Assembly (NCBI GenBank): GCA_964187785.1
Contig: OZ076409.1
Coordinates: forward strand, 62,560,001-62,624,000
DNA: 64,000 nt
Origin: Amphiscolops sp. MND2022
Taxonomy: Eukaryota
Reading direction: 5' to 3'
In this document: positions 6,953 through 49,700 of the stretch, one piece after another
Layout of the letters: each line of letters starts with the position of its first letter
Numbering within the stretch: the stretch's first letter is position 1
Translations under genes and position numbers: made by a program
Notes under the pieces: model-generated
Told to the model about the DNA's origin: nothing
Databases searched by the model: none
What the model saw: the letters and a program-made list of their open reading frames with translations, nothing else

Positions 6953-7157
6953 TGTTGTATTCTATGAACTAGACTTGTAATATAAGAGTTTGTAAGAAAC
7001 AATGTTTTCTCTAGCACAAAGTTTAGTGTAATGAAAGCTGAATAATCTAGAGAACTATATAGTTGTTAGTAAACAACAATAACAAAGATAACTAAAAATA
7101 GCAACGGATTGTTTATCAACAGTTAATCTAAATTTGTCTGTTGTTCATTATTCTTCA
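6953..7157 (-). repeat. 3' LTR of element A
   Basis: Direct repeat of 12780-12984 with TG..CA ends. Confidence 0.95.
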
Positions 7158-10100: not shown

Positions 10101-11691
10101 GTTTTATTAGAGGTTCTAGTGCTTGGTGGTCCGTCAATAATTTGACGGGTTTGCCGTAAATATATAGTCGGAAATGTTCTAAACCCCAGACTACCGCTAA
10201 TAGTTCGAGCTCGTTAATTGCGTATTTTTTTTCTGTATCCGATAGAAATCTGCTTGCGAATGCTATCGGTTTTAAGTCGCCGTTGTTTTGTTCTTGCCAG
10301 AGGGTTGCGCCCAATCCCTTTGTACTGGCATCGGTTGTGAGTGTATTCGGTCGAGCGGAACTGTAGTGAGCGAGACACGGTATTTCCGTGATTTTTTGCT
10401 TTAATTGGTTGAATGCTTCGGAGTGTTCCGTTGACCAGTTCCAGTTGTTTTTCTTCTTTAACAACTGTCTCAATAGATCCGTTTGTGCTGACAGGTTTTC
10501 GATATATTTCGAGAGGTATTGAATTGCCCCTAGAAATGATTTCAATTCCTTTTCGTTTTTTGGTTCTTTTAATTCTTGTATCGCTTTTAGTTTATCTTGT
10601 AACGGTCTGATACCGTTTTGGTCAATTTTGTGACCTACCCACTCTATTTCGGTTTTGTAAAATTCTGTTTTGTTTTCGCTCAGTCTATATCCTGCGTTTT
10701 CTAATTTTGTTAGTACCTCAATTAACTCACGTGTATGTTGTTCTTTTGTTCCTTTTGTGACGACTAATATGTCATCTAACCACGCCGGATGTTTGTTCTC
10801 CAGTGTTTGGTCTATCTTTTCTTGAAATATGGTCGGTATGTCCGCCAGGCCGTAGAATCCCTTCAGGAATCTGTAGTATCCGGTGAAATTGCCTCCGGTT
10901 ATTGCAAATATACACAGATCCATTGCGTGTTTTGATAGCTGCATTTGTCCGTAGGCGTAGTCCAAGTCGAATTTGGATATCCATATTTGGTCGGGTGCTC
11001 CGTCTGCTATTTTTCTGGATATTCGTGAGATGAGTTCCTCCATATTCGGCATTTGTGCTTTCCGTTTCACGGTTATTTCATTTAGTTTCCGTGAATCTAA
11101 AGCAATTTTTACCGATTTATCTTTTTTCACGGTTATCACTGCCGGACTGACGAAACAATTTTCGTTGATATTTGTTGCCTTCTCGATATGTCCATTTTTC
11201 TTCAGCTTTTCAATTTCTTTACCGACTGCGGGTTGTAGATGTATTGGTATCGGACGACCTTTTTGTTGTATTAGCTTGGCGTCCGGTTTTAATTCGATGT
11301 CTACTTCTATTCCTTTTATTGTTTTGTTTTCGTGGAACAGTTTTTTGAATTTTCTCTTCAACTCGGTTATGTCCGGGTCTTCTTTTACATTCTGGATCTT
11401 CAGGTTAGTCTCCTCCATTTCTAGCTTTATCCCCAGGTGTTTCATCCAATCTAGTCCAAGTAATGGATTCGTTTTTTTCGTAGTTATCAGTAGTTCTAGC
11501 TTTTTTGTTTCCCCGTTGATTTCAACGTTAGCTATTGTTTTTCCTTCGAATTGAATTTTGTTGTTGTTTACATCTCTGTATTCAGAATGTAGTGGCTTCA
11601 TTGGTGTTATTTGGTTAAACATTTGTTTTGGAATCAGAGTGACCGGTGATCCGCTGTCTATAATGAATTTGATTGGACGGTTATTAACCAA
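7123..11691 (-). pseudogene. pol: Pol of element A (protease, RT, RNase H, long spacer, integrase, long C-terminal tail); frameshifts near 8490 and 7500
   Basis: IIDSGS (PR), WLDDIL (RT), TDASTKGLGA / NELELLAV (RH), H..GHP..C..C and IQLDF/TDKA (IN). The integrase continues as GLVERGVRTLK in ORF 7467..8465. Confidence 0.92.
7158..7170 (-). other. Polypurine tract of element A
   Basis: GTAGAGGGGGAAA on the minus strand abutting the 3' LTR. Confidence 0.85.
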
Positions 11692-12731
11692 TGCCGTTTT
11701 TGTGATAAATAGCTGACCGTCACTGGCTATTTGTTTTGTTGAATGGATTGTTTTCGTAATAAGGTGTATTTTATTTGGTGTCCATTCGTCTTCTTCTGCG
11801 CTTGTTGCTTCTGATTCCGGATGAATGTGTTTTATCTTTCGGTCCGTTCTCTGTTTTGTACGGCAGAATTTTGCGTAGTGGCCAATTTTTCCGCAGTTTA
11901 GGCACTTTTTTGTTTTTGCTGGGCAGTCGTGATGTTTATTCCAGTTTGGTGCTCCGCATCTAATGCAGTCGACTACTCTGACTTTATTTGGTTTGTTTCG
12001 TTCCGGTTTTTGGTAGCTTCTTTTTTTTCGACGTGTTTTATTTTTGTTTCTTCTTCCGTATCCCGAGATTCATTCATTTTTTCGTACATGTATTCGTGGA
12101 TTGTGTCAGTTATTGCTTCTACCGACATGTCCCCTTTCTTTATTTTCTTTTTTAGGTCATTGTCTCCCGTGGTTTTCCCGATTACTGAAAGAAATTTTGA
12201 TGCCAGCAGTTCTGCCGCTGTTATTTCTTCAAATTCGCAGTTTTTTTCGATTTCGAGTATTCTTTTCCATGTTTCTGCTGCGGATTCTCCGGGTTCCCGC
12301 TTTAAATTGAAGAAATCAGCTCTACTATGGTGTTTATTCCGTTCCGGAATAAAGTGTAGTCTGAATAGTGCGTAGAGACGGTATAATGGTAGAGAATTCG
12401 GTTCTCTTTCTCTTACCGTCTTTGTCATTTCGGTGAGTGCTGCTTGTCCGACCGCCCAGATGAAAACGTCTTTTATTTCGTCTTCGAGTTGGTCTCTGAA
12501 TTGGGGAAGCACTTCTTTGGAGTTGGTCATCTTTGATAAATCTATTTCCCGTGTCATTTTGATATATTGGGTGAATTTTCTCCACCAGAGCTTTGCACTG
12601 GTGTGATCGGTTTTTTCTAAGATCGGAATGGGCAACTTTTGTATTGTTGTCCGTTCTCCCGATCTCGTTGTTGTATTGTTTGGGAGTGAATGGCTGCTTG
12701 CTTCTCCCGCGTTGTCTGGTTCGTCTTCCAT
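11692..12731 (-). CDS. gag: Gag of element A; zinc knuckles lie in the -1 frame after an A8 run near 12021-12028
   Basis: ORF 11973..12731 follows the PBS. CIRCGAPNWNKHHDC and CLNCGKIGHYAKFC are in the pol frame at about 11870-11970. Confidence 0.88.
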
Positions 12732-12761
12732 TTTTGCAGTTTCTTTTTTTTCTGTAGGTTC

Positions 12762-12779
12762 AGATTGCTGACTGCGCCA
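12762..12779 (-). other. Primer-binding site of element A (tRNA-Ser-like)
   Basis: TGGCGCAGTC directly after the 5' LTR; complementary to the ...GACTGCGCCA 3' end of animal tRNA-Ser. Confidence 0.75.
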
Positions 12780-12984
12780 TGTTGTATTCTATGAACTAGA
12801 CTTGTAATATAAGAGTTTTTAAGAAACAATGTTTTCTCTAGCACAAAGTTTAGTGTAATGAAAGCTGAATAATCTAGAGAACTATATAGTTGTTAGTAAA
12901 CAACAATAACAAAGATAACTAAAAATAGCAACGGATTGTTTATCAACAGTTAATCTAAATTTGTCTGTTGTTCATTATTCTTCA
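12780..12984 (-). repeat. 5' LTR of element A
   Basis: Direct repeat of 6953-7157. Confidence 0.95.
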
Positions 12985-15178: not shown

Positions 15179-16707
15179 TGTCCCAGGCGGCCGCCTGTGA
15201 TGGGAATCTGTATTCAATAAGCCACAGCTACCAAAGAGCCCTGCCGAATACCCTCCCAATAAATTAAAACTTGTTCGGAAAGTAATATTTCGATTGCTTA
15301 GTATTAGTTGATTTTATACTCAATGTAAAATGTTAGATGCTGTTACTATTCATATGTATATTAATGTACGGTGAATTTGAAATTGGACACCAAGGCGTAC
15401 AGGCAAAGGAAACGAGTTCAAATGTTTTCTTGCCTGTCGCCTTGGACAAAGCATCCAATTTGAAATCAACCAATCAGAGAGCAGTATTTAGTTATGTACA
15501 TGTACAGTTGCTATTAAACCAATATGGCGGTATTAGTACTTGCGCCGTACTTGGCTTTCATTCTCACGGCTTGGAAATAAATAAAGGACAGCGTGTCCAC
15601 TTTGACACAAGCCGACAATGCTGTTATTTTAAATAGTTGAAAGCTGCTCTATTAGTTGCTATAATAAGACAGCGTGGATACTTGACCATTCCTGTACCTT
15701 GAAAGTACAGAAATTAAAATCTTGATGCTTACTATTTTAGATACATTCTAGCTAATATGGCTAGAAAAGTCATGTTATAAAACATGATACATGAATTGTT
15801 GCTTTTACATGTTAATATATGTAATTCTTGGCTGTTATTGTCATTGTAGCCATGGAGGCCGTATTAATATTCAGTCACCGCTAGCCCTTTGAAGTATATA
15901 TTTAGTGTGTTGATGACATCACGGTGCTATTTTTAGCCGTTATGTTCTAAAAATAGATGCATGACACCCTGAAATTAGATCATCACCCCCGCCCTAACTA
16001 TAAATACCCAGGACTAGCTGTCCTCAGGGACACAATTTGACAAGCGATATTATTATCAGTTTCACCTTTTTGATAATACTCAGATACAAATTATTAACCG
16101 TTCAGTTGTTAATAACCGATTACTAGAATAATTTAAATATTACCTCTAGTACAATCATTTATGCCTTCCACAAGAAGACAGAAAGCCAAGGCAAGAAAGT
16201 CTAGAGAAATGGACATGATGTCCGATATAGACAACTTGGACGTAATGTTAGGTAATGGGAGTGAAAATCCTATTGAGAGAGAATTAGCAGATGCAATCGA
16301 ACAGTCCTCTTTCCAGGGAGACTACGAAGGAAATGAGTACCAAAGGAACAATTATAACTTTGTACAGGAAAATGAGCCAATGAGGCACAATGAAGTTAGA
16401 CAGTCCTTTGAAACTTTTACAAATGAATTCAACCTCAGATTGTCTCAAGAAATGGATTCCATGATGTCCATGGTCCATAACCAGATAAACAGGGCAATTA
16501 GCACTGCTATATCAGAAAGGGTGATCCCAGAGATCCAAAACATTGTGAGTTCAATGTCATCTTCAGGAAATAGGGACACTGAGGCCAGTATGTCCCCAGG
16601 TAGTCAAGAAAATAGGGAAAGTTCATCCGGGTTGAAAACTAAAATAACGAAAAAGGACTCACGGTCCGTAGGTGATTTGAGAGACACCACGGGGCGTGGC
16701 TCTTACA
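15179..16707 (+). repeat. 5' LTR of element B
   Basis: Direct repeat of 29254-30782, followed immediately by a TGG PBS. Confidence 0.95.
15999..16006 (+). promoter_or_regulatory. TATA box of the element B LTR promoter
   Basis: TATAAATA about 160 bp before the gag ATG; same motif at the equivalent place in element C (56151-56158). Confidence 0.7.
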
Positions 16708-16719
16708 TGGTGACAGGAG
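16708..16719 (+). other. Primer-binding site of element B (tRNA-Leu-like), inside the gag coding sequence
   Basis: TGGTGACAGGAG directly after the LTR CA; resembles the Leu-type TGGTGTCAGRAG. Confidence 0.65.
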
Positions 16720-17829
16720 CTAACAACAGACATTTCCTGAATTTCTCACTGGACGAATCCACTCAATCCCAAACCTGGCGAGACAACAATCAAACCACAA
16801 TGTCTCTCTGGACACCACTCTGCCAGCCCCAGAACAAGAGGTTCCTGAGACACCTCAGGACCCCTTGAACAGATTGGCCGACGTCCTGGTCAACTTGCAA
16901 AATAAGCCACAAACGATGACCATCCGACCAGTCCAAACCACACCAATGACATTTGACGGGAAAAGTGAAAAATTTGAACTCTTTGAAGACCTATTCCACA
17001 CGATGATCAAAATGCAACCGGCCATGACAGAGCAAATGAAAATTAACCATTTTCATTCCTTGCTTAGGAAAGGGGCCCTGCAGACTTTCAGGAATATAAA
17101 CTCAATTAACCGTCAAACGCTCGAGGACGTGCTGGTCATATTCCGGAGGAAATACGTAAAACCGGAATCCCAAGCAACGGCAAAACACAAATGGCATCGA
17201 CTAATTTTCGACCCGAATACCATGAAATTGCCGGATTTCTTGGAAGAACTGAACCAGGGGGCAGAAAAAGCATTTGGCGAGAATGCGAAAAGCATGATTG
17301 ACAGTTTATTGTACTCAAAACTGCCTCCAAAATTAAAACGATCTGTCAATATGGCCCGCCTAGAGAACGGGACATATGAAGAAATCGTTGCTCATCTAGA
17401 ACGAGAACTTGAACTTAATGCATTGGAAGAATCTGATGACTTACCAATGGCCACTATGGCCTCTGCGTCCACCAGTAACAGCAACCTGCTGTCCAATGGC
17501 ATAAACACAAACAAGGACGCACAATGCTCCTATTGCAAAGCCACAGGCCACTTCTATAAGAACTGCCCTAAATTGAAAAAGAAAAAGGAATTGGAGGACA
17601 AAAATGGCAAAAAGCCCCAACGCCCTACATACCCAGAATGCCCTACTTGCGGAAAGAAAAATCACCCCGTTGAGAGATGCTGGAAAGGGGCTGGAGCACA
17701 TTTACGCCCCAAAAGGACACGTCCTGAAGATAAGGCTGATGACACCTCTGGAGATGAAAAATCATCCAAGAAGTCAACTAGCCCCGAAACCACATCTTCA
17801 AGCCATTCATCTTCTCGAAAAACCGATTC

Positions 17830-17839
17830 AAAAAACTAA
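17830..17839 (+). promoter_or_regulatory. -1 ribosomal frameshift site A_AAA_AAC followed by the gag stop
   Basis: The -1 frame is open into pol; identical heptamer and stop in element C. Confidence 0.85.
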
Positions 17840-20800
17840 TTTCGCCACGACTCCAAGTTTCCAACCAGATGTCAGTGCGACAATATGTCATATCTGACCC
17901 ACCAAACATTATTTATAAACAAACTCAAAACGATACCACAGGAATTCCATCGACTGTCTGGCAGCAGCAAATGGCCAACGCCCGCATGGAAACTCAACAT
18001 ATTATCCATAGCGACCACCCATACTTATATAGACGAACAAGTTACGACAACGACTCGGAAACTCACTTTCGCCCCTTACAAACTGTCGAAGATTATAACC
18101 CTCAATACTATGACCCCGAGTATGGCAAAGACCCGTACTGGGACGAAGAACTATATGACAAAACCAATTTACAATTTCGAAACGAAGATTACCCTCCAAC
18201 TGACGACGAGGACGACCCAGACATTGAAGACAACACACTGTCTCGGGCCCTCATTGATCCTTGGCAGCCAAATTTTGATGCAATAATACAAGGAGTAGAC
18301 GCCACTCAACAACAGGAAGGCCACAAAGCCTCTAACAGACTTTTAGATGAAACGGCCTTCCTAGATCTCTTAGTGGCCAAGGAATGAGAGCCGTCCTACG
18401 TTCCCCTTTCAACAAACCTTGGGCTCAAATTTAAAAGACGAATGCTCTATTTCCCAATGGATTTTGGAGAGTTAACCCTAGACGGCCTAATCGACACTGG
18501 AGCCCACTCCAGTGCAATACCGGAAGCAGACCTTAGAAAGATACGCCTATTGGCCCCCCAGTCGATAGTAAAAGAAGGCCCTGCTCCATCTTTTCAAATA
18601 ATGGTCGCAAATGGTGATTTAGAAAACACAAAGAGCACAGTTGAACTAAAATTTGAGGTGGGAGACATAGAATTTCATGAAATCTTCATTGTAATGGAAA
18701 AACTGTCTAGCCCCATAATTGGACTGATGTTCCTGCAGAGGAACCACACCGTCTTGGACATGCGCCAAGGTATACTCAATTTCCCTTACTTCTCGATGCA
18801 ATTAAAAACGGCCGACCACAAGTATTCAAATGTAATCGAGCCAATTCTCAACCCTGAAGGCATCACCATTCCTCCGAATGACCTTGCAGTCATCTCTATA
18901 CAGTCCCAGATCTATGCCGAAAATGCAGTCACGGGGATATTACAACCCAGTGACCTCCTCCATGAAGAAGGTGACGTTACATTTTGCGCCGCCATAGTCA
19001 CGTTGCATGAAGGGACTATGAGGATACACGTTAACAATTTTACTGACCACCCCTACACACTCAAAAAGGGGCTACATATCGCAAATTTCTCAGTGATGAC
19101 TCCTGAACAGATGAAACATGTCAGGCCAATAGACCCAGTGTCCATCTGGCATTTACTAAACGAAAATGAAGAAGACGCTATCTACTATATCAGTAGCCTC
19201 CTTAAAGCTAACCGAAATAACGACCAGTATGAACAATATTGGTTCCCGACACCTGAGAACCCAGGCGATGAAGCATCACATACGCCAATCCAGCAAAGAA
19301 TCCTCAGGGATTTAAGAAATCTAGAAGAAATAGAAAAACTCAACCCGCAAGACAATGCTGAATCTAGGCAAAAATTCCTCAGCAATTTTGACTGGAAGGA
19401 CTCAATGCTACAACAGCATGAAATCAAACAAATAGAAGCTCTCTTGGTAGAATTTCACGATATCTTCGCCCGCCACAGATTTGACATTGGCGTCAACGAG
19501 GAATTCACGGTCAAATTGACCCCGAAGAATGATTCACCTGCCTATAGCCAGAGCTTACCTACTCCGGTCAACCTCAAAGAGGACATATTGGTCGAACTGG
19601 CTTTGCTTCACAAATACGGTATTATTACAACACTACCATTCTCAAAGTACGCCAGTCCCATATTCGCCCAGAAAAAACCAAATGGCAAGTTAAGATTACT
19701 GGTTGACTTGAGGAAAATCAATAATCTCATATCCGACGATTATATCAACAACAATCACCCAGTCAGCACCTTAACGGATGCCGCGCAGCACATGGCCGGG
19801 AAAAAGCTTTTCTGTAAACTCGATTGTTCGCAAGCCTATCATTGTCTCCCAATAGCTGACCAGAGGTCTATTGAAATGCTTGCTTTCAATTTTGCTAGCA
19901 GGACCTTTGCCTATCGCAGATTGGCGCAAGGCCTCAGCAGAGCCTTATCGGCCTTCTCCAGCTTTATACGAGAGTATTTAGACCGGGTGATCAAAGCAGA
20001 TCAATGCGCCCAATATGTGGACGATATCGGCATTGCGGCCAACGATGCCGAACATCTCATAACAAACCTCAGGGCTACCTTCCAATGTATCAGAGAAGCC
20101 GGACTCAAACTGTCCATGCACAAGTGCCACTTTGGCACTACCGAAATTGATTTTCTTGGGAGAACCATCACCCCTGAGGGTGTCAAACCCCAAAAGGAAA
20201 GAATCACCAACTTCTTGGAAAAGACGAAATTTCCAAAGTCCAAGAAGGCCTTACAGCGTTACCTTGGCTTCCTCAATTACTACAGGAATTATATACCAAG
20301 ACTATCTGAAAAACTCGTTCCCTTCTTCCAATTGCTCAAAAAGGACGAGAAGGTACTAGTGACGCAAGAGTTGGTTGAACAATTTAATGAAATCAACCGA
20401 GACTTAGATAGATGTAGTCAACTGGCGCTGAAACAACCTCTGCCGAACAAACAGCTCGTCCTGATGACCGATGCAAGTTTTACAGCAGCCGGTTACGCCA
20501 TATTGACCGAAGACGACCCAAATCAAAAACACACTTCCGTTAAAAAGTCCTATGCGCCGATTGCATACGGATCAAAAACTTTCACGCCTTCTCAGCTTAA
20601 AATGTCAATATATGCAAAGGAATTCCTAGCTATATATTATGCATTTAAGGAATTTGGACACATTTTCTGGGGAACACCTCAACCTGTGATTATACTCACA
20701 GACAACAAATCGGTCACGAGGTTCTTCCAGACCAAGATCGTTCCACCGCCACTCTGGAATGCTTGTGACTTTGTCATTCAATTCAACTTCATTATAGCTC

Positions 20801-22938
20801 ACATTCCAGGCAAGAATAACACAGCGGCAGATTATCTGTCTCGTATGGAAATGGACCCTACTGAAAAGTTGGTCCTGAAAATACGAGAAGACGTAGATAC
20901 TAGACCGATCGAAGTAAATGTCCAATCAGCCGGCGTGTCAGAAGAAGAACAAATTTTCTTCACCGAGGAGGATAATGAAACAGAAGAACAGATTTGGGAA
21001 CGGAAAAAACAATCCAAAAAGGGACTCATGATCCCTGAGACAATAATCCACATTGACGCCATATCCGAAAATACAATAGAAGAAATTACCAATTTCACTC
21101 AAAAATTGCGACGAACTAATCAGATACTGCTCGAACAGTCTAAAGATCCCATCTTGCTCCAATTAAAAGCAAAAATTCAGAAGGAAGAATACTCTGAAGA
21201 AATCTTGCAACAGGATACTCGGTACAAGTACTACTTGAACAACATGGACCGAATAGTCCTTAAGGACGAAATCGTGACAAGGCAGTACTATGACGAAACT
21301 GGACAGATCAAATACCATCAAATTCTGTTACCGAAACACCTAGTTCAAGAATTATTACAAGCAATACATGGCACGGCACATCGACATCCAGGCATCTCTA
21401 AAATGCTGCAAGAAATTCGCCAAAAGTACTACTACCCAGGAATAGCAAAACTTGTCAAAAAATGGGTAGATGGCTGTGAAATATGTGCCAGAGACAAACG
21501 GGTCCCTAATGCTGTAATTACCCCAGAATTACTGGATTTGCCTGAATGGGACCTTGGTCCAGAAGACGCCATGCAAATTGACCTATTACCAAATTTACCG
21601 ACTAGTGGAGGATACCAAACGGTGATGACGGCAATAGATGTATTCTCAAGATACTTGTTCGCCTACCCGCTAATTGAGGCTACAGCCGCAAATGTGACCA
21701 AGGTGATAATTGATATAATGACGAAGCATTCATATTTGCCGACAACTCTCATCACAGACAAGGGCTCCGCATTTACTTCAACAATTCTAGCAGAAATCAC
21801 CAAAATTCTGGGAATAACACTTAGATGCGCTACTACCAAACATCCGCAAACGATCGGCAAACTTGAGAGGACACACGCCTCTTTAAAAACCAACCTGAAG
21901 ATGGCCTCAGGGGAATATCGTCGTCAATGGCACAAATATTTACCATTAGCAGTGCTCAACTATAACACTACTTATCACGCTAGTATTGGTTGTGAGCCTA
22001 GCAAAGTCTTCCATGGCCGAATCCCCTACAATGTCCTTGATCATAAATTAGGAAATAATCCTAATAAAAATTTCCTACCGACAACTGAATTTGCAGAAGA
22101 ATTACAGCAGAGGACGCAAATCCTCATTGATCAGACAAAAAAGAATATTATGCAGTCGTATTTAAAGTACAAGGAGTACTACGACCGCAAGGCCAAAGCG
22201 GCTCCGCTACAAGAGAAAGACTACTGTTTTGTTCTTCAACCGAAAGCGGATAGTCAAGGCTCTAAAATACCATTTAGGGACTTCCGATGGATTGGTTCCT
22301 TTGTCGTCCAAAAAACCTTACCAAATAACAATTATATAGTGCGTCGTTTAAATACGAATAAAACGCAGATCTTGCACCGGATCAGGCTCAAAAAATTTGT
22401 TCCAAACACCCCATTAGAGGACAAATTTAAAGAAGAGAAATTACAGCCTGATGAGGAGATAGTAATACCGCAAGATGATTTGTATACCATCTCATGGGAA
22501 GCGGACTTTGAGTACGAGCTATTCGAGCCGAAGACAAATGACTGGCCACACACGGCCACGCGTCTGCCACAGGACGCCGCGAACGGAGAAGTCGACTATT
22601 ACGTCACCGAGAATGAAAGCAGCAGCGTAAACGAAAGCGAGCGCAGCAGCGAAAGAAGAAATGACAATGACGTCAGCGAGAACGAAATAAGGCCGAGATC
22701 GGCCACCAGCCGTGATGCGCCGTCCCCTCTGCATGAATCGCCTAGTAGGACGGAAAATGAAAATGACGTCACTAATGAATTAAATGATGACGGAAACATT
22801 CCAAAAAGGGCCGCAGATATTACCGTGCCCGGAATATCGGAAAACGAAAGAAATGAGGAAAATTCTAGTCCTAGAGGAGGGAAATATAATCGTCGACCTA
22901 ACCCTACCCCCAACTTTACTGATGAATACAGATATTAG
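17830..22938 (+). pseudogene. pol: Pol of element B (N-terminal extension, PR, dUTPase-like fold, RT, RH, IN); single in-frame TGA at 18385-18387
   Basis: LIDTGA, YVDDI, TDASF, H..AHRHPG..CEIC, QIDL/TDKG/KLER. The TGA aligns with a Gly codon in element C. Confidence 0.95.
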
Positions 22939-23198: not shown

Positions 23199-26100
23199 TT
23201 AATGTTTACTAGAACCCTGCTGCAGCTCTTTAACGGTCTTCTCTATTTCCAAAGAAGGGATATTGCCAAAGTGGGCTAACTTGGAGGACTTCCCAGGAGA
23301 ACAGAACGGATTACCCACTTCACTTGCTTCAGAAGGCAAATCGAAATGGGCCTTCTTGACCCCCTCAGTATCAGTCCCGTGAATTTTGTGGGCTGCCAGA
23401 AGTTCCTTATGTATGGAGATCTGCCCAAATGAATCCACATGGGACCAAGGGTCCCCTGAGACATTGCCAGACGAGAATTTGGCATTCAAAAGATGGTAGC
23501 GCGTGAGAGCTGCTTCAGTAACACTGTAGGGAATGGCTCCGGGGACATGAGCTAAATATGACTGTGCCGGAAACAAAACATCTGATAGACGACAAAACGA
23601 ATCAGAGGAGTCCATATTGTGAAATTTGATGGCCGGCAACGGAACGCTAGCCTCAGTAAGACACATGCAGCTGAGGCGGAAAAGATGGAATAGGTGTGGA
23701 CGGGCGGTCAATGCAGGCATCCCGATCAGGAAGGCAGTCACATCGTGCACCAGCTCAGGGGAATTCATCAAGCTAGGGCAGGCATTGCGGAAATCGTCGA
23801 TGAATCCCACGTACTCATCACGGTAATCGGACTCAGAGTCCGCAGACACCCACCAGCTGGAACGTGTCAAACAACGAGGTAAAACAGAATAGGGCTTGCT
23901 CCATGGGCTGCGTTGACAGCACAGTCAAATCAAAAGCAGCCATCCCTCTCACAATATGGGCTGTAAGGCGAATATCGCCCAGGAGCGATTCGAGGATGTT
24001 GACGATGAAGGAGCGGGCCTGGCTAGCGAACATTTCCTTCATGTTTTTGGCTAGTTTCTCGAACGCCTGCGCTTGGTCCGACTTGGAGCTCAACTCCTTC
24101 TTGGCCTTCTGTTGACAAGCTTGGTCAATGTCTGTTTTTAACTTCAGTCGCAACAAGAAGTCCCGGCTGGAAAGTTGCCGTACCCCGTCTAATTGCAGTT
24201 GCAAAAGCCCAGACCAATCAGTGTCCGCGGGGGTGTGCTTGGGTAACAGGGCCCGTTGACATAATCTCCGTATGTATCGGCAGAGCTCTCCAAAGGTGAA
24301 AAATCCTGAGTCCCGTCGCTTGATGAGACTCCGTTCGAAGCACTTGGTGTCTAAACGGTCAAAAGACCCATTAGGCATACTATAGCCCAGTGCCGATTAA
24401 GGCCTATGGTTTTTGTTTGACAAACATGATGGAATGTGGGATATGTAAACGATCAAAAATTGTCATCAAAACTTGAAGGGAATATGGAAACAGAACTAAC
24501 AATCGCGGACTAGCCGTCCGAAGAATTCAACCTTCAGAGGAAACAGGTCGTCAGACAGAATGGTCCATTCCAAGCTCTGGGGCTGAAGCAAAACACGTAC
24601 CACTCTATAGAGCCGAAATGAAGACAAATAGGATCAATGTACTTTGCAGGACGATTACAAACTGGCAGGGAACTGCAAAAATGGAGCTGGGAGATACTAA
24701 CTTTTCCTTTGACTCCTTGCATGGCGTAGGATGGGGCTCTGCTGGTGAGGTAATCCAGAATGGCTTTCCAGTGCTGTATTAGCTCCGAGCAAATTGCAGG
24801 AATGTTACGTAGCTCAAAGGTGGAAGCTTCTATTGCCTATAATGGCATACAAACCATAAGGACCTATTTGAGGGTGAAAATTATACAGGGAGCAAAAGGT
24901 AGCCTACCTTTGTCAGCTCAGGCGATTCCAACGTCCAGGGCTCTGTCAAAATGCCGCTGAAGAACACGATCAAATATCGCAATTGTGAGAAAAAATCCAT
25001 TGGCCCAAAGACACTTCCTCCTTCTTTGTACATCAAGGCCTGCAGAGACAGCACGTCGAACCGAAATGGGTACTGGACCCCGCGTGAGAATAAACCACAA
25101 TTGTCCAAGGTCCGAACCAGAGAAGCGGGACAACCGGACACACTCACGAGGCCAGGCTTGAAAGAGATGACTGAAAGGAGTCGAGACAGTCCCGTAATGA
25201 AGTTGGAGGGAAACCCGGCAACCAAAGGACATCGAAACAACGGGACCCGTACCAAGGTGTTCTCTTTCCAAAAACGGACTGACATAGTTTGATTTCTTCC
25301 GGTTGCTTCAACTTCAAGGGCATACATGTCGTTCAGAGCAATGTGGTGAGACAGATCCTCAATGGCACAGGTAAAGATGTGATGAGATATCACCTAAACC
25401 AAAATGAAAGATCTTGTTAGCTATGGAAAAGCAGAACCTCATTTCAACCACCAAAAGAAAGAGACTTACGGTCATTGTGGCTGAACTCCAATCAAAAGGG
25501 GAGAACTGCTCTTTGTGGTTCATGTATTCCCCTACTTGGGACCACAGTGTTTGTAGCAGGGAGATGTTGCCATCGTAGGGAACAAAACTCCCAACGAGAG
25601 CTATTTGAACGCTGGCACGCTGGTCCTCTGTAGTCTGCTGTCCTTCCGAATTGGCCAAATATTCATCATAAAAGGGGTACCTCTCCCCCACGTCGACGAG
25701 TGGTGCATTTTCAAAGAGGGGTTTCTCTCGCTCAAGTTCCAAAGGAGTCAAGATTCGTCCGTCTTTTCCTCGGACCTGATGTCGAGTGATGCCAGTCACT
25801 TTATCTGTCACGCTTAAGTGTTCAAAGCGCCATCTCTGGTCTTTCCTCAGATGAGCCTCGCCTTGATAATGTCTGATGATTTCCCGCGCCCCTTTTGTCT
25901 TGATGGAAACATTGGCCTTACAAATTTGGCAATAGAACTTGTGTTGATTGTGGGAAGGATCCAAAGGCCCAGTCACGAAAGTTTTAGTCCATTTGATTCC
26001 TTTGAAGTAGGACTCCTTCATAACTTTCCCTGTTCGTCCGGACACCTTCTGGCGTTTTCGTGCTGGTTTAGTTGGGGTCTTGTTTCCTGTGGATTTGGGA

Positions 26101-27200
26101 AATAATGCGGCCAATGGGGCATAATCCTCGGCGCTGTACCCACTACCAGGACTTGTTGGCAACATTGGAGTAGCAGTTCTGGTCGGTTGAGATTGTGGTC
26201 TGAAGCTAGGCGAAGTTGGCGAGTAATTGTGCTCGATATGGAAATCTAAACTATCTAGAGCGTCATCTGAGTTGAGGGCACCACTTGTATAACTGCCGCT
26301 TGCACAGTCTTCTCCGCTGCTTTCTCCTTCAGAGCTAGATTGTTGTCCAGGGCCTGGAGTGCCGGCACGCCTTACATGGCGACAACGCTCTTTTGAGATG
26401 ACTTTTCCGTCAGCGGCTTGAAGGAGCAGGGATTTCATCAAATGGAATGATGAGAGGAGTGACTCGTCCGAGATGGTGCGGAGGACCGTATGCATCTGCC
26501 CTTCACTCAGGGCAATGACAGGTTGGCTAACGGGAATATTGATGGGTTTATTCTCCGTGAAGCATTTGCGTAAAGCTGCTCGCCCGGTGATGGAAAGTTG
26601 CCTGGGTGTAGCGGTAGCTTTGCTTGTGCTGGGTGGTTCATCTAGCAAATCGTCGCTGCTTGAATTCCCCCTCTTTGTTCCAGCGTCATCTCCTGAGGAT
26701 GGCGAGGGGACTGTGACGAAAATGTTGTTGGCGCCTTGTAGAGTAGTACCACTAACCCCTGATCCGTCAAGCAATTCCCCGAACTCGCTCGTGTCGGTAG
26801 AGTTTGGGCCCTGAACGAAGTGTCCAGGGGTATCCTCTAAATCCTCTCCTCCCAAATTGGTCTCTTCTACTGCATCTGTTGTCAGGGGAGGGCTGATCTC
26901 CATGAGGTCGGAAACTGACTCTTTTTGGGACAGTACATTATTTAGCTCGGCTTCAATTTGGTCAGCACTATTGGGAAGTGACTCGGAGGACTCGTTGTCT
27001 CTCTGGACAATGGTAGCCACGGTCCGCTCAGCGTAAGCACTCAGGCTTTCGGCATTGGACCCACTTGAATTCGACGAGGGAGATCGTCCAGTAGGGGCAT
27101 TTTCATTTGGAACAGCTTCTTTGGGGATTTCTGTCGCTGTTTGATTTTCGGTTGTTTCCTTGGTTGGGTTTCCAGGAGTTGTATCTTCATTGGACGACAT
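23199..27200 (-). CDS. Antisense 5-exon accessory gene (about 1190 aa) derived from a hAT transposase lacking catalytic residues; one frameshift near 23855
   Basis: Exons 27200-25470, 25393-24908, 24836-24702, 24582-24501 and 24350-23199 are joined in frame by four GT-AG introns. BED-like finger FYCQICK..RHYQGEAH; homologous C-terminus in element C. Confidence 0.8.
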
Positions 27201-28508
27201 GTCTAAATAGAAACAAATGAAGGTTAGCGGTGAACTTCCTGTATGAACCAATATTCCGCGTATGAAAGTCTTCCGGAAGCAGACTACGTTGAACACTTGT
27301 GAACACTTGTGTTATTTGGACAGGAAGTACGTGAATGGAATGAGAGCTCTGATCAAGCATTAATTTCAATTCAAAAAATATATTGGAACAAAAGGAAACT
27401 CAAGATCAACCGACTTACTTGGATTTTGATGTAGGAAGATGTTGAAGTTGTGTTGCGTGCAGATGGAAGCGGACGGGATGGCAGGGAGGACAGCTCTGGA
27501 CAAGTAGTTTGGCGATTGATGTCCACGAAGACACGGTGGCCAATTAAAATCTATGACGTTGGAAAACGCTGAGAAATTGGATTTCCTTGAGAGGAAGAAG
27601 AAGAAGGGGCAAAGAAGGATTGTGTTGGCTGAGAATGGCCTGAAGAGGGGCTAGAGGTCGTCTTTCCGAGGACAATCCAAAAATCCCACAAATGAGAAGA
27701 AAACGTAAAGGCAAATGCAACTAAATACGACTTGTGGACTAAAGCTAACTATGGATTAAATACGATGAAGAGTAAATGTGGTGGATAAATACAAGTAATA
27801 CAAAGGAGAAAAGAGTAATACAAATGGAATTGAGATGTAAAAGAATTTGAAGAGAATTGGCGATGTGACAATACGTCAAAGTTGGAGTTCGTGGCTATAC
27901 AGTTTGGTGTCAAATTTACAATTATGTACAATTCAAGTTATTATGTGGATATAGTCTGCCAGCAATATCTACATTATTTCATCTTATTTTGAAGAAAATT
28001 TCGTCATTCTACGAATTATTTCATGATTTTACCATTTCTTTATTTATTTTCAAGGTCATTTTATAATGTTCCTCATATGGATTCATGGCCTTGAAAACCC
28101 ATTTTGAGTTGAGAGAGAAATTACTGCTTTCCTATTGGCTATCTAGAACTAAGGCGGACGGCATGGCCTTCAGCTATATATTCACCCACTTGAAATTTTC
28201 AAGTAGTTCATGAGTGTTAATAAACACTCAAAGATGCTATTGATGGCTACTCGCCGCTCAGGAGAGCGGTAAAGATTATTAGGTGTCAACAAACGGGTGT
28301 CGGCTTGTCATCAAAAACATTGTGGCGTTGTTATTGAAGAATTTCCAAGGAGAGAGACGAGAAACCCGGGAAATCCACCAAACAAAGTCTGAAGGAAAAT
28401 CCGCTTGAAAATATTTCATTCAGACTTTTCTCTACTGCAAGAACTAGTTGGCTCTTGGAAATTGTTACTTTCAAAATTGCGAAGAAAATAATAAAAGAAA
28501 GATTTGAA

Positions 28509-29342
28509 ATGGACCAGCAAGAGTTATTTCCGGAAAGCACCTTATTTCCTATGGACTTCCAAGGCGCGGCACCGGGGGATGGTATAATTTACATCTCGAG
28601 CGATGAATCAATGGAGTGTCTAAGTACGAGTTCGGTGGAAGACCTGGACGACTTGTCAGAACCGGAAGACGACGAAGTCGCACTTTTGGCCCGATGTATA
28701 GAGAGGCAGATGGAAATTCCATCTACAAGCAAAGCAATCCCGGTTCCTGATAACGACACTGTTAAATACAAGAGGAAATGGACACCCAGGCCAATGCCCA
28801 CTCCAGAACCTACATTCAATGCTGGTTATTTTGACTTGGGCATGGGAAGGGGGCCAGTCCCGAGAGACAGCCGCCAGAAGAACAATCACCCGATTAATGT
28901 GTGCAGACAGTTGATACCGATGGTAGATACCCCGCTTTCGCCGCCACCGCAGGACAAATATCCAATGTACGACGAGCAAAACCCGGTGGGACAAACAGTA
29001 CTACTCAGCGAACAAGGGATGCAGAATTACTCCCATTTCAAAATGGCAGATGGAAGTCTTACACCGTACATAACAGGATGTACAGATTGCCTTGTGTGCG
29101 GCAAATCGGTGGAGCAGATTCAGGATGAGGCTGTGATTGACTATCTTCACAAGACGGCAGTTTACGGGGAACTACCAGAGCAATTCAACGCTAGGAGACT
29201 CGCTTTCCTGGAGGGAATGAAAGTCGGCTCTTTTATGTTGATTCCAGGGGGAGTGTCCCAGGCGGCCGCCTGTGATGGGAATCTGTATTCAATAAGCCAC
29301 AGCTACCAAAGAGCCCTGCCGAATACCCTCCCAATAAATTAA
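28509..29342 (+). CDS. Accessory ORF (277 aa from first ATG), acidic/Pro-rich with CTDCLVC cluster; reads through the PPT into the 3' LTR
   Basis: Open frame; the last 29 codons are conserved with synonymous changes and the same stop position in the element C LTR. Confidence 0.8.
   Translation: MDQQELFPESTLFPMDFQGAAPGDGIIYISSDESMECLSTSSVEDLDDLSEPEDDEVALLARCIERQMEIPSTSKAIPVPDNDTVKYKRKWTPRPMPTPEPTFNAGYFDLGMGRGPVPRDSRQKNNHPINVCRQLIPMVDTPLSPPPQDKYPMYDEQNPVGQTVLLSEQGMQNYSHFKMADGSLTPYITGCTDCLVCGKSVEQIQDEAVIDYLHKTAVYGELPEQFNARRLAFLEGMKVGSFMLIPGGVSQAAACDGNLYSISHSYQRALPNTLPIN
29246..29253 (+). other. Polypurine tract of element B
   Basis: AGGGGGAG abutting the TG of the 3' LTR. Confidence 0.8.
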
Positions 29343-30782
29343 AACTTGTTCGGAAAGTAATATTTCGATTGCTTAGTATTAGTTGATTTTATACTCAATG
29401 TAAAATGTTAGATGCTGTTACTATTCATATGTATATTAATGTACGGTGAATTTGAAATTGGACACCAAGGCGTACAGGCAAAGGAAACGAGTTCAAATGT
29501 TTTCTTGCCTGTCGCCTTGGACAAAGCATCCAATTTGAAATCAACCAATCAGAGAGCAGTATTTAGTTATGTACATGTACAGTTGCTATTAAACCAATGT
29601 GGCGGTATTAGTACTTGCGCCGTACTTGGCTTTCATTCTCACGGCTTGGAAATAAATAAAGGACAGCGTGTCCACTTTGACACAAGCCGACAATGCTGTT
29701 ATTTTAAATAGTTGAAAGCTGCTCTATTAGTTGCTATAATAAGACAGCGTGGATACTTGACCATTCCTGTACCTTGAAAGTACAGAAATTAAAATCTTGA
29801 TGCTTACTATTTTAGATACATTCTAGCTAATATGGCTAGAAAAGTCATGTTATAAAACATGATACATGAATTGTTGCTTTTACATGTTAATATATGTAAT
29901 TCTTGGCTGTTATTGTCATTGTAGCCATGGAGGCCGTATTAATATTCAGTCACCGCTAGCCCTTTGAAGTATATATTTAGTGTGTTGATGACATCACGGT
30001 GCTATTTTTAGCCGTTATGTTCTAAAAATAGATGCATGACACCCTGAAATTAGATCATCACCCCCGCCCTAACTATAAATACCCAGGACTAGCTGTCCTC
30101 AGGGACACAATTTGACAAGCGATATTATTATCAGTTTCACCTTTTTGATAATACTCAGATACAAATTATTAACCGTTCAGTTGTTAATAACCGATTACTA
30201 GAATAATTTAAATATTACCTCTAGTACAATCATTTATGCCTTCCACAAGAAGACAGAAAGCCAAGGCAAGAAAGTCTAGAGAAATGGACATGATGTCCGA
30301 TATAGACAACTTGGACGTAATGTTAGGTAATGGGAGTGAAAATCCTATTGAGAAAGAATTAGCAGATGCAATCGAACAGTCCTCTTTCCAGGGAGACTAC
30401 GAAGGAATTGAGTACCAAAGGAACAATTATAACGTTGTACAGGAAAATGAGCCAATGAGGCACGATGAAGTTAGACAGTCCTTCGAAACTTTTACAAATG
30501 AATTCAACCTCAGATTGTCTCAAGAAATGGATTCCATGATGTCCATGGTCCATAACCAGATAAACAGGGCAATTAGCACTGCTATATCAGAAAGGGTGAT
30601 CCCGGAGATCCAAAACATTGTGAGTTCAATGTCATCTTCAGGAAATAGGGACACTGAGGCCAGTATGTCCCCAGGTAGTCAAGAAAATAGGGAAAGTTCA
30701 TCCGGGTTGAAAACTAAAATAACGAAAAAGGACTCACGGTCCGTAGGTGATTTGAGAGACACCACGGGGCGTGGCTCTTACA
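29254..30782 (+). repeat. 3' LTR of element B
   Basis: Direct repeat of 15179-16707. Confidence 0.95.
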
Positions 30783-32516
30783 CCAAACTACGGACAATTG
30801 GACTGCATAATTAACACAATCATCTATCACGTTGAAAATCGAAGTAACAGTGACGAACAAAGTGACGTAACAAGCAACCGAAAGGTTCACGTTTCATTGT
30901 GATTGAGCTCAATCTAACGCATGCTTTGTCTATGATGGAGCCGGAGAACCCGTCGATTTTCAGTTGATCTTTAAATGAGTTAAAAAGTTTGTGGAAAACA
31001 AAGGGAACATGATTTAGTCCGATAACACGTTCTGACTCCGATATCAAGATTTTCTTCATTGAAAAAAAAACAATTTGGACAACTTTCAGTTGAAAAGTTG
31101 CCAATTGAAAAAGAAAAATTTGCCTTTGAAGTGCGTGAAGAAAAATTTTAGTTCACACTTGACACCCATTTGTGGGTGAGCAATGTGCTTTGACGCAAGC
31201 CATTTGCTCCAAATTTTCTCCAGGTAAGTTATACACCGTTGGGAACTGTCACTCAGCGATGACGCATCGAACTCTTCGCAATTTCCGTCTTCTTCCCCGG
31301 GTAAAGTAACATCGGAGTCACTGTCGTTCATTCTTCACAGAGTTTTTGAGTTTCACCCAGATTACAAACTTAAAAAACTCAAAGTCGACGGTATTTTATA
31401 TCACAGAACAACAAACGCATAAATGAAGCACGTTTTTTGAAGTCTGTAGGAAATGAAGGAGTATTCTGGGAAAGTAAGCTTCTAGTTTCTGGCTCATTGT
31501 TTGCCAAAAAGAAACTGGTTTAAACGGAATGGTTTTAACGGAATGGGAAATTGTTTCCAATTGAAACAATGTCTGGGGAATTCAAACTTTCTCAAGCAAG
31601 GTTTCATATATGGTCTCAAAAATTGTTTTAAACTGACGTTATTGTTATATGACTTGGCGAGGTTTGACTTTAAGAGAAGAAGGGAGCTTTACAGTTTTAA
31701 TTGGAAAAGTGAAAATTCTTCAACAAAGAATTTCATCTTGCAAAATAGTCATGGCATCAAGGTCTACTAGTTGACTGCTTTCGGTAGAAAGATCGTTATA
31801 TTTTCATTAGAAAGTAATCTGGGTACCTTTTATTTTTTTCGCGCAATTGGAAAAATGACTCCTTGTGATGTAATGATAAACAACACAGCAATAAAAAGTA
31901 CTAATTTAGTTAGAATGACTTATTAAACCCTTTTGGCGGTGTAACCAAAAGAAAAGTCACTGAAAATGTGAACAAACTGTCACTGCTTGTTATTGACTTT
32001 TGAAAACTTTGTCAACCACGTTTTTCGGTTGTTAACTCTTGATCACTGAAGAGTAAACATGTCAGATATACAAATGAGGTTGTCTTTTTTGAAATTTCTA
32101 GAAGATGTTTCAGCAAAAAGTCAATTTTTCTATAACTGTTCATATTCGATGTTCATTTTTAAATGTTTAAGATAATAATGTGATTCTAACGATGAACAAT
32201 TTATTGTTACTTTTTGCATTGCTTCCTGGAAAGAACTGCCCGAACATAAAATTAACTTAGAAAATAAGATAAAACTAGATCAGACCAAAGGGTCTTTTGT
32301 ATATTGATGCATTGGGATGTTTTTCATGAAATTTTGTGAATTATCTGGAATTGATTTTAGCAATCAGCAAAGTCGCAACTGAGTTTTTTCTATTCAATTC
32401 ATGTTGAAATGACGATCTCGAGAGTCCATCTTTGGTATTATTCCAATTTCTAACATTTTTAGTTGGAGCTTTAATAAAAGAAACGTGACTATTAAAGTGG
32501 CACTTCGTCGTGTTTT

Positions 32517-46169: not shown

Positions 46170-46704
46170 AAACAAGACGGGAACGTCCCAAGTCGGCGCC
46201 ATATCTTAGGCTCAAAAATATTCAAGGAACAACTATTGTAAATATTTGGAAAAAAAAATTTTCAAAAAAATTATTTTTGAAATTTTTTTTCGAAAAAAAG
46301 TATTTTGTAAGTCGCAAAATGCCGAAAAACTCAAAAAAAGGCCATTCAGGCTCATTCAACGTTTTCTACAAACCGAAAATTTCAAAAAAAATGCAAGGGG
46401 GTACCCTTTGATAAATTTCAAAAATTTTCGAAAAAAGTCGCATAGTGGCGAAAAAAACCCAAAGGGGGGGGCACTTTGGTCTCACCTGTACTTTTGGAAG
46501 CATTAAAAAATTTATGGTTTAGTGCGAGAATCGAACCCACGCACTCCGGCTGGGTCGAAGATGGAAGATGAACAAATATGAAAGATGAACAAATTGTAAG
46601 AAAAGTGGACCACTCAGAGTGAGATTGTCAACTGAAAAAAACAAAAAAAAACTACTCACTGTAAGAGTCGGGCTTTTTTCCTTAAGGGAAAAGGCGCCGA
46701 CTAA
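46170..46704 (+). mobile_element. Helentron/DINE-like repeat inserted between gag and protease of element D
   Basis: Same termini as 41078-41630; interrupts the relic coding sequence. Confidence 0.65.
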
Positions 46705-49700
46705 AAAGGGAGTACTTTCACGCAACATTATTAGCCAACAACGCACCAATGAAATTCATTATAGACAGTGGATCACCAGTTACACTAATACCCCAACACT
46801 AATATTCAATGACACTTCAGAAGTGACAAAAAGTTACACACCAAATACAAAGACGTAAACGACAACTAGAATGAATTTATTGGACAAACAAAAGCGACAG
46901 TGAGAACTAATAACACAACACTTCAACTACCATTGCTAATCACCAAAACCAATATAACACTGTTATTGGGATTGGATTGGATGAAACGGCTTCGAATTAC
47001 ACTTAACGCGGCAACGGACAGTATCAAAAAACACAACATAAAACTGGAGGATGTGGGAAAGAACATTTTGAAACTGCAGGAAGAATTCAAGGATTTATTC
47101 TACAACAACACCGAAATAAAAAACATATTCGTGAAAATCAACTGGATAGAAAACGCAAATATAAAACAACAAAAAAGAAGAGCATTCCTGATTTATCTAC
47201 AAGACCAAGTAGCAGAAGAAAATAAACGATTAAAAAAACGGTTTTTTGGAAAGAGCAACAGAAACAACGGAGATTGTATTGTGAGCGCAGCAGTTATGAC
47301 GATGAAAAACGACAAATCGAACTAGATTGAAAAAATCAAACGCGGCAACAAAAAACGAAAAGGCCTGTTGCCAAACATGCAAGAATTAATATCAAAAATA
47401 TCACGTGAAATATCGGAAGAGGAAGAAGGGGAAATTTGGATAAAATAGCCTAATCAAACTAGATGAAGCAACAAGAAACTTGGGTACATTTACCGTTACG
47501 GGAGGAGAATATACCGGATATTAACGTTTCATTGAAAGTTTTTACGGACTGTCAAACATACAAACAAGTTTTCCAGAACGGATCGAGAAACCACTAAAAT
47601 TCAAACACCCCGCATGGCTAGATGACATTAAAATCGCGACGGAAGGAACCGTAGAAAAACACGAGGCGGAGGTAAAAGAAACAATTAATAAATTGGAAGA
47701 GGCCGCAATAGATTACACCCGAAGAAATGCGAACTCTTCAAAAGAGAACCAGGATAGGTCGGACACCGAATAGGTCAAAATAGAACCAGAACGCTACAAG
47801 AAAAATTGGAGCAATAACAAAAAAAAACAAACCAAAAAGGAGAAGGAGCTGAAATCTTTCTTGAGAGCGATCCATTATCTATCAAAGTATATCGAAAACC
47901 TTTCAGCACAAACAGATATAAACAGAAAACTACTCAAAAGCAAAACGAATGGATCTGGACAAAAATAACATAAAGAGGCGTTCAAGAATCTGAAAAAACT
48001 AAGAACACAACTACCATTCGTAGCACACAACATATCTTACAACGAAAATGTCCTAACGACGGACGCAAGTACAGAAAAAATGAAAGCGACGCTATGGCAA
48101 AAACAGAAAGATGGAAATTTAAAACCAATTAGCTTTGCGAGATGATTTGTATCGGAAACCGAGAAAAAGTATGCAATAAACGAACTACAGCTACCAGCAG
48201 TGGTATGGGGAGTGGAACATTTTCGCCTATATATCTATGGAAAGCCAATTGAATTACTAACCGATCATCAAGCACTGGAGCCCCTAATCAAAAGAAATAG
48301 ATCAAATAAAACATATAGGCAAGTTTAACAAAGTGGTTAGCTAGGCTCGCACATTTCGATGTAAATATAAAACACAATGCTGGAAATCATCTCAACTTGA
48401 CTGACTATGTGAGCAAAAAACCAATAGCAAATCTGGAGCCAATTGTTTAAAATGACGACGAAGATTGCGTAATTAATTGCGTAATACCCTTAGTGGAGTT
48501 CAATAACACTTAAAAATTATTTTTGAAATTTTTTTTCGAAAAAAATTATTTTTTAAGTCGCAAAATGCCGAAAAACTCAAAAAAAGGCCATTCAGGCTCA
48601 TTCAACGTTTTCTACAAACCGAAAATTTCAAAAAAAAATGCAAGGGGGTACCCTTTGATAAATTTCAAAAATTTTCGAAAAAAGTCGCATAGCGCCGAAA
48701 AAAACCCAAAAGGGGGGCACTTTGGTCTCACCTGTACTTTTGGAAGCATTAAAAAATTTATGGTTTAGTGCGAGAATCGAACCCACGCACTCCGGCTGGG
48801 TCGAAGTTGGAAGATGAACAAATATGAAAGATGAACAAATTGTAAGAAAAGTGGACCACTCAGAGTGAGATTGTCAACTGAAAAAAAGCAAAAAAAACTA
48901 CTCACTGTAAGAGTCGGGCTTTTTTCCTTAAGGGAAAAGGCGCCGACTAAAAAGGGAGTACTTTCACGCAACATTATTGGCCAACAACGCACCAATGAAA
49001 TTCATTATAGACAGTGGATCACCAGTTACACTAATACCCCAACACTAATATTCAATGACACTTCAGAAGTGACAAAAAGTTACACACCAAATACAAAGAC
49101 GTAAACAACAACTAGAATGAATTTATTGGACAAACAAAAGCGACAGTGAGAACTAATAACACAACACTTCAACTACCATTGCTAATCACCAAAACCAATA
49201 TAACACTGTTATTGGGATTGGATTGGATGAAACGGCTTCGAATTACACTTAACGCGGCAACGGACAGTATCAAAAAACACAACATAAAACTGGAGGATGT
49301 GGGAAAGAACATTTTGAAACCGCAGGAAGAATTCAAGGATCTATTCTACAACAACACCGAAATAAAAAACATATTCGTGAAAATCAACTTGATAGAAAAC
49401 GCAAATATAAAACAACAAAAAAGAAGAGCATTCCTGATTTATCTACAAGACCAAGTAGCAGAAGAAAATAAACGATTAATAAAACGGTTTTTTGGAAAGA
49501 GCAACAGAAACAACGGAGATTGTTTTGTGAGCGCAGCAGTTATGACGATGAAAAACGACAAATCGAACTAGATTGAAAAAATCAAACGCGGCAACAAAAA
49601 ACGAAAAGGCCTGTTGCCAAACATGCCAGAATTAATATCAAAAATATCACGTGAAATATCGGAAGAGGAAGAAGGCGAAATTTGGATAAAATTAGACTTC

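Follow-up and report, generated by a model that had tools for sequence, protein, structure and literature searches.

An accessory gene reading through the PPT into U3 of a Ty3/Gypsy retrotransposon belongs to a new protein family with a candidate SUMO-binding motif

The window, that is, the whole 64,000-nucleotide stretch of Amphiscolops sp. MND2022 DNA that was analysed, contains a 15.6-kb, intact-looking Ty3/Gypsy element (element B), which self-comparison of the window showed to be bounded by 1529-bp LTRs. The two LTRs differ at 7 positions over their 1529 bp, have TG...CA ends and are accompanied at both flanks by the target-site duplication CCAAA. The pol of B is open, with its Pfam domains in the order PR-RT-RH-IN, and PBS-like and PPT sequences are both present. 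By its LTR ends and target-site duplication, pol order, PBS and PPT, element B is a Ty3/Gypsy LTR retrotransposon; since its gag matches DUF1759, the assignment to Ty3/Gypsy rather than BEL/Pao is provisional. The element lacks env. TATA and CCAAT boxes and GT-AG introns point to a eukaryotic host. A relative, element C, is cut by the window end shortly past pol, and its 3' end, with any upstream part of its ORF, lies outside the window. Pfam found no chromodomain in the pol of B or C, and neither element B nor its accessory ORF matched TRP28, env, GDSL or DEDDy profiles. The main features are the following.

15179-16707, plus strand: 5' LTR of element B; the PBS-like sequence TGGTGACAG begins at 16708
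16161-22938, plus strand: gag region and pol of B; the gag-side frame opens inside the LTR at 16161
16724-17839, plus strand: main gag frame of B, with DUF1759 and CCHC matches (Pfam)
18388-22938, plus strand: pol of B, PR-RT-RH-IN
25470-27200, minus strand: putative exon 1 of an antisense gene with a C2H2-like zinc finger, pointing away from the accessory ATG, 1.3 kb off
25393-24881, 24396-23833 and 23924-23199, minus strand: further antisense frames, likely later exons; the last one is common to C
28420-28428, plus strand: TCAGACTTT after a pyrimidine-rich run, common to B and a DNA relative, L001
28509-29342, plus strand: accessory ORF (protein P0001), 277 aa, open; founding member here of an undescribed family
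29246-29253, plus strand: PPT, purine run AGGGGGAG, translated Pro-Gly-Gly-Val
29254-30782, plus strand: 3' LTR of B, with TATAAATA at LTR position 821 and the duplication CCAAA after the LTR
29254-29277, plus strand: LTR start with integrase end and predicted hairpin, reading (V)SQAAACD(G); the B stem has one mismatch
29313-29342, plus strand: distal U3 tail motif P-x-T-L-P with the stop, not part of the hairpin
55145-56875, plus strand: 5' LTR of C, whose start (55145-55233) carries the hairpin and a 28-codon tail
63480-63991, minus strand: last antisense exon as present in C, immediately following pol (33% over 87 aa, tblastx E 8e-32)

Several further observations concern the internal regions and the surroundings of these elements. 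Homologous gag-side frames were found at 16161-16868, 30236-30814 and 56290-58002 (plus strand), beginning approximately 550 to 600 nt before the LTR end in B and C. The gag-side frame passes through the PBS. In B it is out of register with the main gag frame that it overlaps, while in C it shares the register of gag and has a stop at codon 44. Between gag and pol of B, an acidic frame of 201 codons (17782-18387, plus strand) is separated from pol by one stop, and its C counterpart is in frame with the C protease. The window also holds another complete Ty3-type element (6953-12984, minus strand) with 205-bp LTRs that are 99.5% alike; within it, a frame of 376 codons (7467-8597) overlaps the integrase end and has no Pfam match. 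Finally, a tandem duplication of approximately 2.25 kb (46266-50774, 97.9% identity) lies inside decayed pol-like sequence.

The LTRs of B and C could be compared along their length. In both, TATAAATA is followed by GACAC approximately 20 nt further on (15999-16035 and 56151-56185), which likely marks the U3/R border, 820 to 1010 nt into the LTR. AATAAA occurs in the B LTR only upstream of this presumed border (LTR position 398) and is absent from the C LTR. The U3 regions are otherwise unalignable beyond the LTR start, apart from an identical 17-bp block (29482-29500 and 55504-55520) and a CCAATCAGAG box (29545 and 55567) common to both; these are candidate binding sites for the antisense zinc-finger protein or for a host factor.

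The sequence-only reading had proposed that an accessory ORF crosses the PPT into U3, that the C LTR opens with the same frame at equal length, and that the U3 part is under purifying selection. The crossing is plain in the sequence of B: the 3' LTR begins (TG) at 29254, directly after AGGGGGAG, and the open frame 28509-29342 ends 89 nt inside it, after 28 codons and a stop. The C LTR likewise has a frame from 55147 of 28 codons and TAA in the same register, and 13 of the 28 residues are identical. All seven synonymous codon pairs that had been listed are present (TCC/TCG, GCG/GCT, GAT/GAC, GGG/GGC, CCG/CCA, ACC/ACT, CCA/CCT), and CAA/CAG makes an eighth. Over the 28 codons, pN is 0.41 and pS 0.77; in the two shifted frames this contrast is gone (pN 0.54 against pS 0.36 and 0.53). 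Ungapped identity of B and C is 0.52 in the tail and 0.27 over the 90 nt past the stop. Third-position enrichment taken alone is weak (19 of 42 differences, p 0.07) and not significant by itself. Taken with the gag-side frames that open before the LTR end, both LTR borders appear to be coding in B and C.

The family to which P0001 belongs is large. A protein search returned 147 relatives among 491 candidates, and a profile of 48 relatives reached 493 clusters at E<=0.001 among 1.84 billion representatives. We collected 261 family proteins, 76 of which span the profile and are called full length; the other 185, fragments or broken copies, were excluded from motif counts. The full-length members reduce to 23 representatives below 60% identity (range 22 to 59%, median 34%), which have starts, stops and motifs in common. 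At the DNA level, one relative, L001, was recovered among 414 candidates from metagenome contigs, whereas 68 candidate stretches from viral contigs and 54 genome contigs contained none. L001 has the ORF, the purine run and the same LTR-start sequence, and ends inside the tail. Between B and L001, pN is 0.44 and pS 0.76 over 253 codons, pS being saturated and L001 the one DNA relative; in the helical core (residues 189-244), dN is 0.39 against a dS of 2.08. Because of this family size and these pN/pS and dN/dS values, we conclude that the accessory gene is real and selected, open in many copies and lineages and under purifying selection. The parallel with nef that had been drawn for its placement is accordingly upheld in that an accessory ORF under purifying selection spans PPT and U3. 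The other family proteins come without DNA context, so that their place before a 3' LTR is read from the PPT/LTR-start peptide alone.

C probably carries the full ORF as well. Its tail is best matched by a full-length family member, P0144 (17 of 28 identical), and the L001 ORF has, after its purine run, the same 19 bases with which the C LTR begins; these two features and the antisense exon after pol all point that way. Database comparison gave no name to the protein: P0001 has no Pfam match, the 91 aligned members have none in common, and no PDB sequence matched below E 0.7. ESM Atlas, queried with the whole protein and with residues 185-277, and Rfam gave nothing usable for the ORF, and Foldseek and VIA-align found no fold match above background (best Z 4.8, with a small helical hairpin alone confident).

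The LTR start appears to be constrained in more than one way. In C and L001 its first 24 bases are predicted to form a hairpin of 10 pairs (z -3.1 and -3.95, respectively, compared with shuffles), while the B hairpin, with its one stem mismatch, folds no better than shuffles (z -0.3). Across B, C and L001, 29 of 30 stem cells are paired, compared to 23 to 67% when the partners are slid. Random strings of ORF codons reached 10 pairs in 2 of 20000 draws, and in the L001 ORF the LTR start is the only 10-pair place of its kind. No two-sided stem change was found among these three DNA copies. In the protein alignment, where 162 of the 261 proteins have the motif, Thr5 occurs in 6 of 8 rows with Val3 and in 6 of 154 other rows; replacing a single base pair of the stem would be expected to give this combination, Ala3>Val with Ala5>Thr. 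On a tree of 50 chosen rows, built without the motif, the double change falls in one clade of four (support 94/87) and in two single rows; it therefore amounts to about three events, and both changes could be CpG transitions in B-type codons, so that CpG decay could mimic some of them. In addition, TGTC at the integrase end is invariant in all three DNAs. The LTR start appears to carry three codes, namely integrase end, hairpin and protein. The B hairpin core (29260-29273) is a perfect 14-base palindrome, which C and L001 lack and which could allow RNA dimerisation.

These overlapping signals bear on how selection in U3 is to be read. Tail codons 1-8 (codons 250-257) have a conservation of 0.90, above any other part of the protein, compared to 0.57 for the helical core, so that protein selection alone does not explain them; 0.37 was found for the spacer and 0.59 for residues 269-277, outside the hairpin. 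Since SQAAACDG lies on the predicted hairpin, the best evidence for U3 selection in the sequence-only reading is confounded, and four of its seven synonymous pairs fall in codons 1-8, which overlap the integrase end and hairpin. The distal PxTLP and the constant position of the stop give cleaner evidence of protein selection. In 67 of the 75 full-length members in which the LTR-start motif was located, the stop lies 27 to 30 residues past its Ser, and 65 of 76 end in a [TV]-hydrophobic-[PH]-hydrophobic motif. The claim of purifying selection in U3 therefore stands on the distal motif, the stop position and the third-position variation described below, and is weakened for codons 1-8.

It is improbable that the tail is a mere passenger, with PPT, integrase end and hairpin alone accounting for the conservation in the LTR and the function of the protein ending at residue 245. 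The high conservation of codons 250-257 would fit such a passenger, as would the six stem pairs made up of first and second codon positions of the peptide and a pN of 0.57 between B and C in tail codons 9-28. However, the five sites in codons 1-8 that vary between B, C and L001 are all third positions; PxTLP, which lies outside the hairpin, varies at third positions and is kept along with the stop position; Y260 is kept in 80 of 91 rows; and a second structure model pairs residues 260-261 with 274-275 as short strands (pLDDT about 70). We thus read the U3 part as dual coding, for protein and for a predicted hairpin. The ORF would keep crossing the PPT because the 3' end is the template for U3 in both new LTRs, which passes hairpin and codons on together.

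Pol and the accessory ATG are 5.6 kb apart, and the antisense gene starts 1.3 kb from that ATG. Lying so far behind pol, and behind the antisense gene as well, the ORF presumably needs a separate mRNA. TCAGACTTT precedes the ATG by approximately 80 nt in B and 110 nt in L001 with no ATG between, and could be a splice acceptor or the initiator of an internal promoter; the alignment of B and L001 at this place is of modest significance, 27 of 1000 shuffles being as good.

The antisense gene (23199-27200) has 117 relatives, and 28 of 32 aligned members show a weak C2H2 profile match. Homology in exon 1 ends at a conserved Thr-Val-Ser matching a GT donor, at the same place across the antisense family. 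A 76-nt GT-AG intron (25469-25394) in B would join the next antisense frame in phase. Longer relatives of the last antisense exon were searched for and none was found. Because the last antisense exon also lies directly after pol in C, the antisense gene is part of the element, and a nested DNA transposon is an unlikely source of it. A likeness to hAT transposases was not supported by Pfam or PDB, where the weak C2H2 profile was the single match.

The protein anatomy of P0001 is summarised by three further features.

28584-28607, plus strand: SIM-like motif IIYISSDE (residues 26-33) in the acidic N-terminus, by the SIM consensus described in PMC3174244
28926-28946, plus strand: [ST]-P-x-S-P motif (residues 140-146), in 23/23 representatives and 69/76 full-length members
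29088-29225, plus strand: CxxC (residues 194 and 197) and predicted two-helix hairpin (201-215, 223-239), the sole confidently folded part

AlphaFold2 predicted P0001 to be mostly disordered, with a confident helix pair at residues 201-239, after the CxxC. The [ST]PxSP motif is likely a proline-directed phosphorylation site. An env or env-like ORF3 was rejected, as the N-terminus is acidic and no transmembrane segment was found (top 19-residue hydropathy 1.27); P0001 also lacks an N-terminal Gly. A Rad50 zinc-hook profile was touched by 1 of 91 members (E 0.023), which prompted the idea of a zinc-bridged dimer; a homodimer prediction with Zn, run without the alignment, scored 0.00 and speaks neither for nor against it.

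The N-terminal motif fits the SIM consensus, taken here as (V/I/L)(V/I/L)x(V/I/L) or the reverse core with acidic or Ser flanks. Required together with three S/D/E in the first 70 residues, the consensus occurs in 14 of 23 representatives (shuffled mean 0.9, maximum 5) and in 55 of 76 full-length members. Allowing either orientation anywhere in the protein, a count designed after the sequences had been seen, brings the figure to 17 of 23 (shuffled mean 2.0), as three more carry the motif elsewhere and six lack a strict motif. In alignment A1, 45 to 46 of 48 rows have I, V or L at each of the core columns 26, 27 and 29, and the x column varies. The shuffles show that the motif is kept and do not speak to its ligand; the counts are inflated by shared descent, and acidic proteins often contain SIM-like strings, which are short. 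We therefore consider the motif a lead with good pattern support, SUMO binding being predicted.

What such a protein would do for the element can be proposed with reserve. We tentatively favour a SUMO-binding adaptor that would work through its N-terminal SIM, protecting or promoting expression of the element itself, because SUMO is needed for piRNA-guided silencing in Drosophila and viral regulators use such motifs against SUMO-based defence. SUMO is described as required for piRNA-guided transposon silencing in Drosophila (10.1101/533091), and ICP0, IE2 and Daxx are described as using SIMs in which a V/I/L core is followed by acidic or phospho-Ser residues, the IVISDS of ICP0 being likened to the motifs of Daxx and IE2 (PMC3174244). 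According to this proposal, the ORF would have a dedicated mRNA, with TCAGACTTT as its splice acceptor or its transcription start. The SIM, aided by phosphorylation of the following serines, would bind SUMO-tagged chromatin factors, and [ST]PxSP would control activity or turnover of the protein. The CxxC, the helices and the C-terminal PxTLP would be the binding sites for a partner; this may be the antisense zinc-finger protein of the element, from which sequence specificity would come. The net effect would be to relieve SUMO-dependent silencing at the element. A point against this proposal is that the family has no conserved nuclear localisation signal.

A transactivator was the function suggested by the sequence-only reading, on the strength of the acidic N-terminus and the CTDCLVC cluster. 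The acidic N-terminus stands: residues 1-60 of P0001 contain 17 D/E and no K/R. The cluster does not stand as such, the first Cys being kept in 22 of 91 rows and the second and third in 85 of 91 each, so that the conserved part is the CxxC. In its classical form, the acidic N-terminus would be an activation domain brought to the LTR or an internal promoter, either by the protein alone or via the antisense zinc-finger protein. Hydrophobic residues within an acidic stretch, as found here, are typical of activation domains, and the 3'-end position behind a possible internal promoter would also suit this function. Activation domains are usually poorly conserved, however, and a fixed core-S-S-D pattern is kept in this family. 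Moreover, net charge is negative in all 23 representatives (-4 to -35), a basic cluster that might bind DNA is present in 2 of 23, and the cluster retains two conserved Cys; since all 23 are acidic, with a basic cluster in two and a lone CxxC, a DNA- or RNA-binding transactivator is disfavoured. A precedent, foamy-virus Tas, is described as working from an internal promoter (PMC3798896). Altogether, we regard a transactivator as unlikely, and a stand-alone one is not favoured given the absence of a shared basic patch.

A less probable function by analogy is that of a particle or integration cofactor that would bind Gag or integrase, with the SIM tethering the integration complex to SUMO-rich chromatin. 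The CRM group A elements, described as encoding a putative targeting domain in the 3' LTR (PMC3059260), provide a parallel, and the lack of a detectable chromodomain in the pol of B and C would leave room for such a role; against it, the ORF is separate from the integrase. It is very doubtful that the protein is a Rev- or CERV-like regulator recognising the hairpin near the 3' end of unspliced RNA to promote export or packaging. In favour of this, a conserved structured element (the predicted hairpin) lies beside the PPT, and the LTR retrotransposon Cer1 offers a precedent in CERV, an export factor that is spliced, contains Cys and is controlled by phosphorylation (PMC10309623). Against it, all 23 representatives carry a net negative charge and have no Arg-rich motif, and the hairpin would also be present in the ORF's own mRNA and would not mark the unspliced one.

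The SUMO-binding adaptor could be part of a larger arrangement, which we offer as a speculation that is unlikely to hold in all its parts. It would be a two-part counter-silencing system on back-to-back genes, in which a spliced antisense zinc-finger protein finds the target and the SIM protein acts as adaptor. The adaptor's C-terminus would be encoded across the PPT, the integrase end and a hairpin with a function, and both LTR borders would be coding.

If the adaptor function is correct, a retrotransposon SIM adaptor would parallel the way in which herpesviruses counter SUMO-based silencing; the literature searched, mostly open-access papers, held no description of a retrotransposon-encoded SIM protein. 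The role of extra ORFs in LTR retrotransposons is described as an open question (PMC7264820; PMC11963269), and this family provides a small protein, diverse and present in many copies, for which SUMO binding would be a specific and inexpensive test. Independently of function, the triple-coded LTR start calls for caution when selection is deduced from synonymous changes in frames that overlap an LTR. The hairpin at the LTR start also represents a case of the PPT-side hairpins that PMC3601003 stated deserve looking for.

Genes known to extend their coding sequence across the PPT into U3 include nef and sag (PMC12789967); among Ty3/Gypsy elements, CRM group A provides an example (PMC3059260). HIV-1 nef, MMTV sag/rem (PMC12789967) and foamy-virus tas/bel2 (PMC3798896) are likewise 3'-end accessory genes coding into U3, possibly from a spliced or internally started mRNA as here. 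However, Nef, Sag, Tas and Bel show no sequence or profile match to P0001, and element B has a Ty3-type pol and no env. In CRM group A, the LTR-encoded part is the integrase C-terminus of the polyprotein, whereas in B it belongs to an ORF that stands by itself, 5.6 kb behind pol. In these plant centromeric elements, the CR motif encoded by the LTR is thought to guide targeting (PMC3059260). Extra sense and antisense ORFs are described in plant elements (PMC7264820; PMC11963269), and bdelloid ORF3s are said to come from spliced messages (PMC5408684). Element B differs in its back-to-back pair of genes, an antisense zinc-finger gene that is apparently spliced and a sense ORF that runs across the PPT.

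The N-terminus is similar to ICP0, IE2 and Daxx, in which a hydrophobic core is followed by Ser and acidic residues, IVISDS type in these proteins and IIYISSDE in P0001 (PMC3174244). P0001 has no RING finger or DNA-binding domain, unlike the SIM-bearing regulators ICP0 and IE2. CERV of C. elegans Cer1 is likewise a regulatory orphan encoded by an LTR retrotransposon, has a Cys-rich stretch and is controlled by phosphorylation, but it shares exons with gag and has 517 aa, three folded domains and an NLS, while P0001 is acidic and encoded at the 3' end (PMC10309623). Sire elements and HIV have stem-loops or an inverted repeat at the U3 start beside the PPT, as here; in those, the PPT is in the loop, whereas the core hairpin of B, C and L001 lies wholly inside U3 and is also translated (PMC3601003). 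No description of this protein family was found in the literature searched (mostly open-access papers). Overall, P0001 represents a new protein family in a known kind of position, and its overlap with a predicted hairpin is newly noticed.
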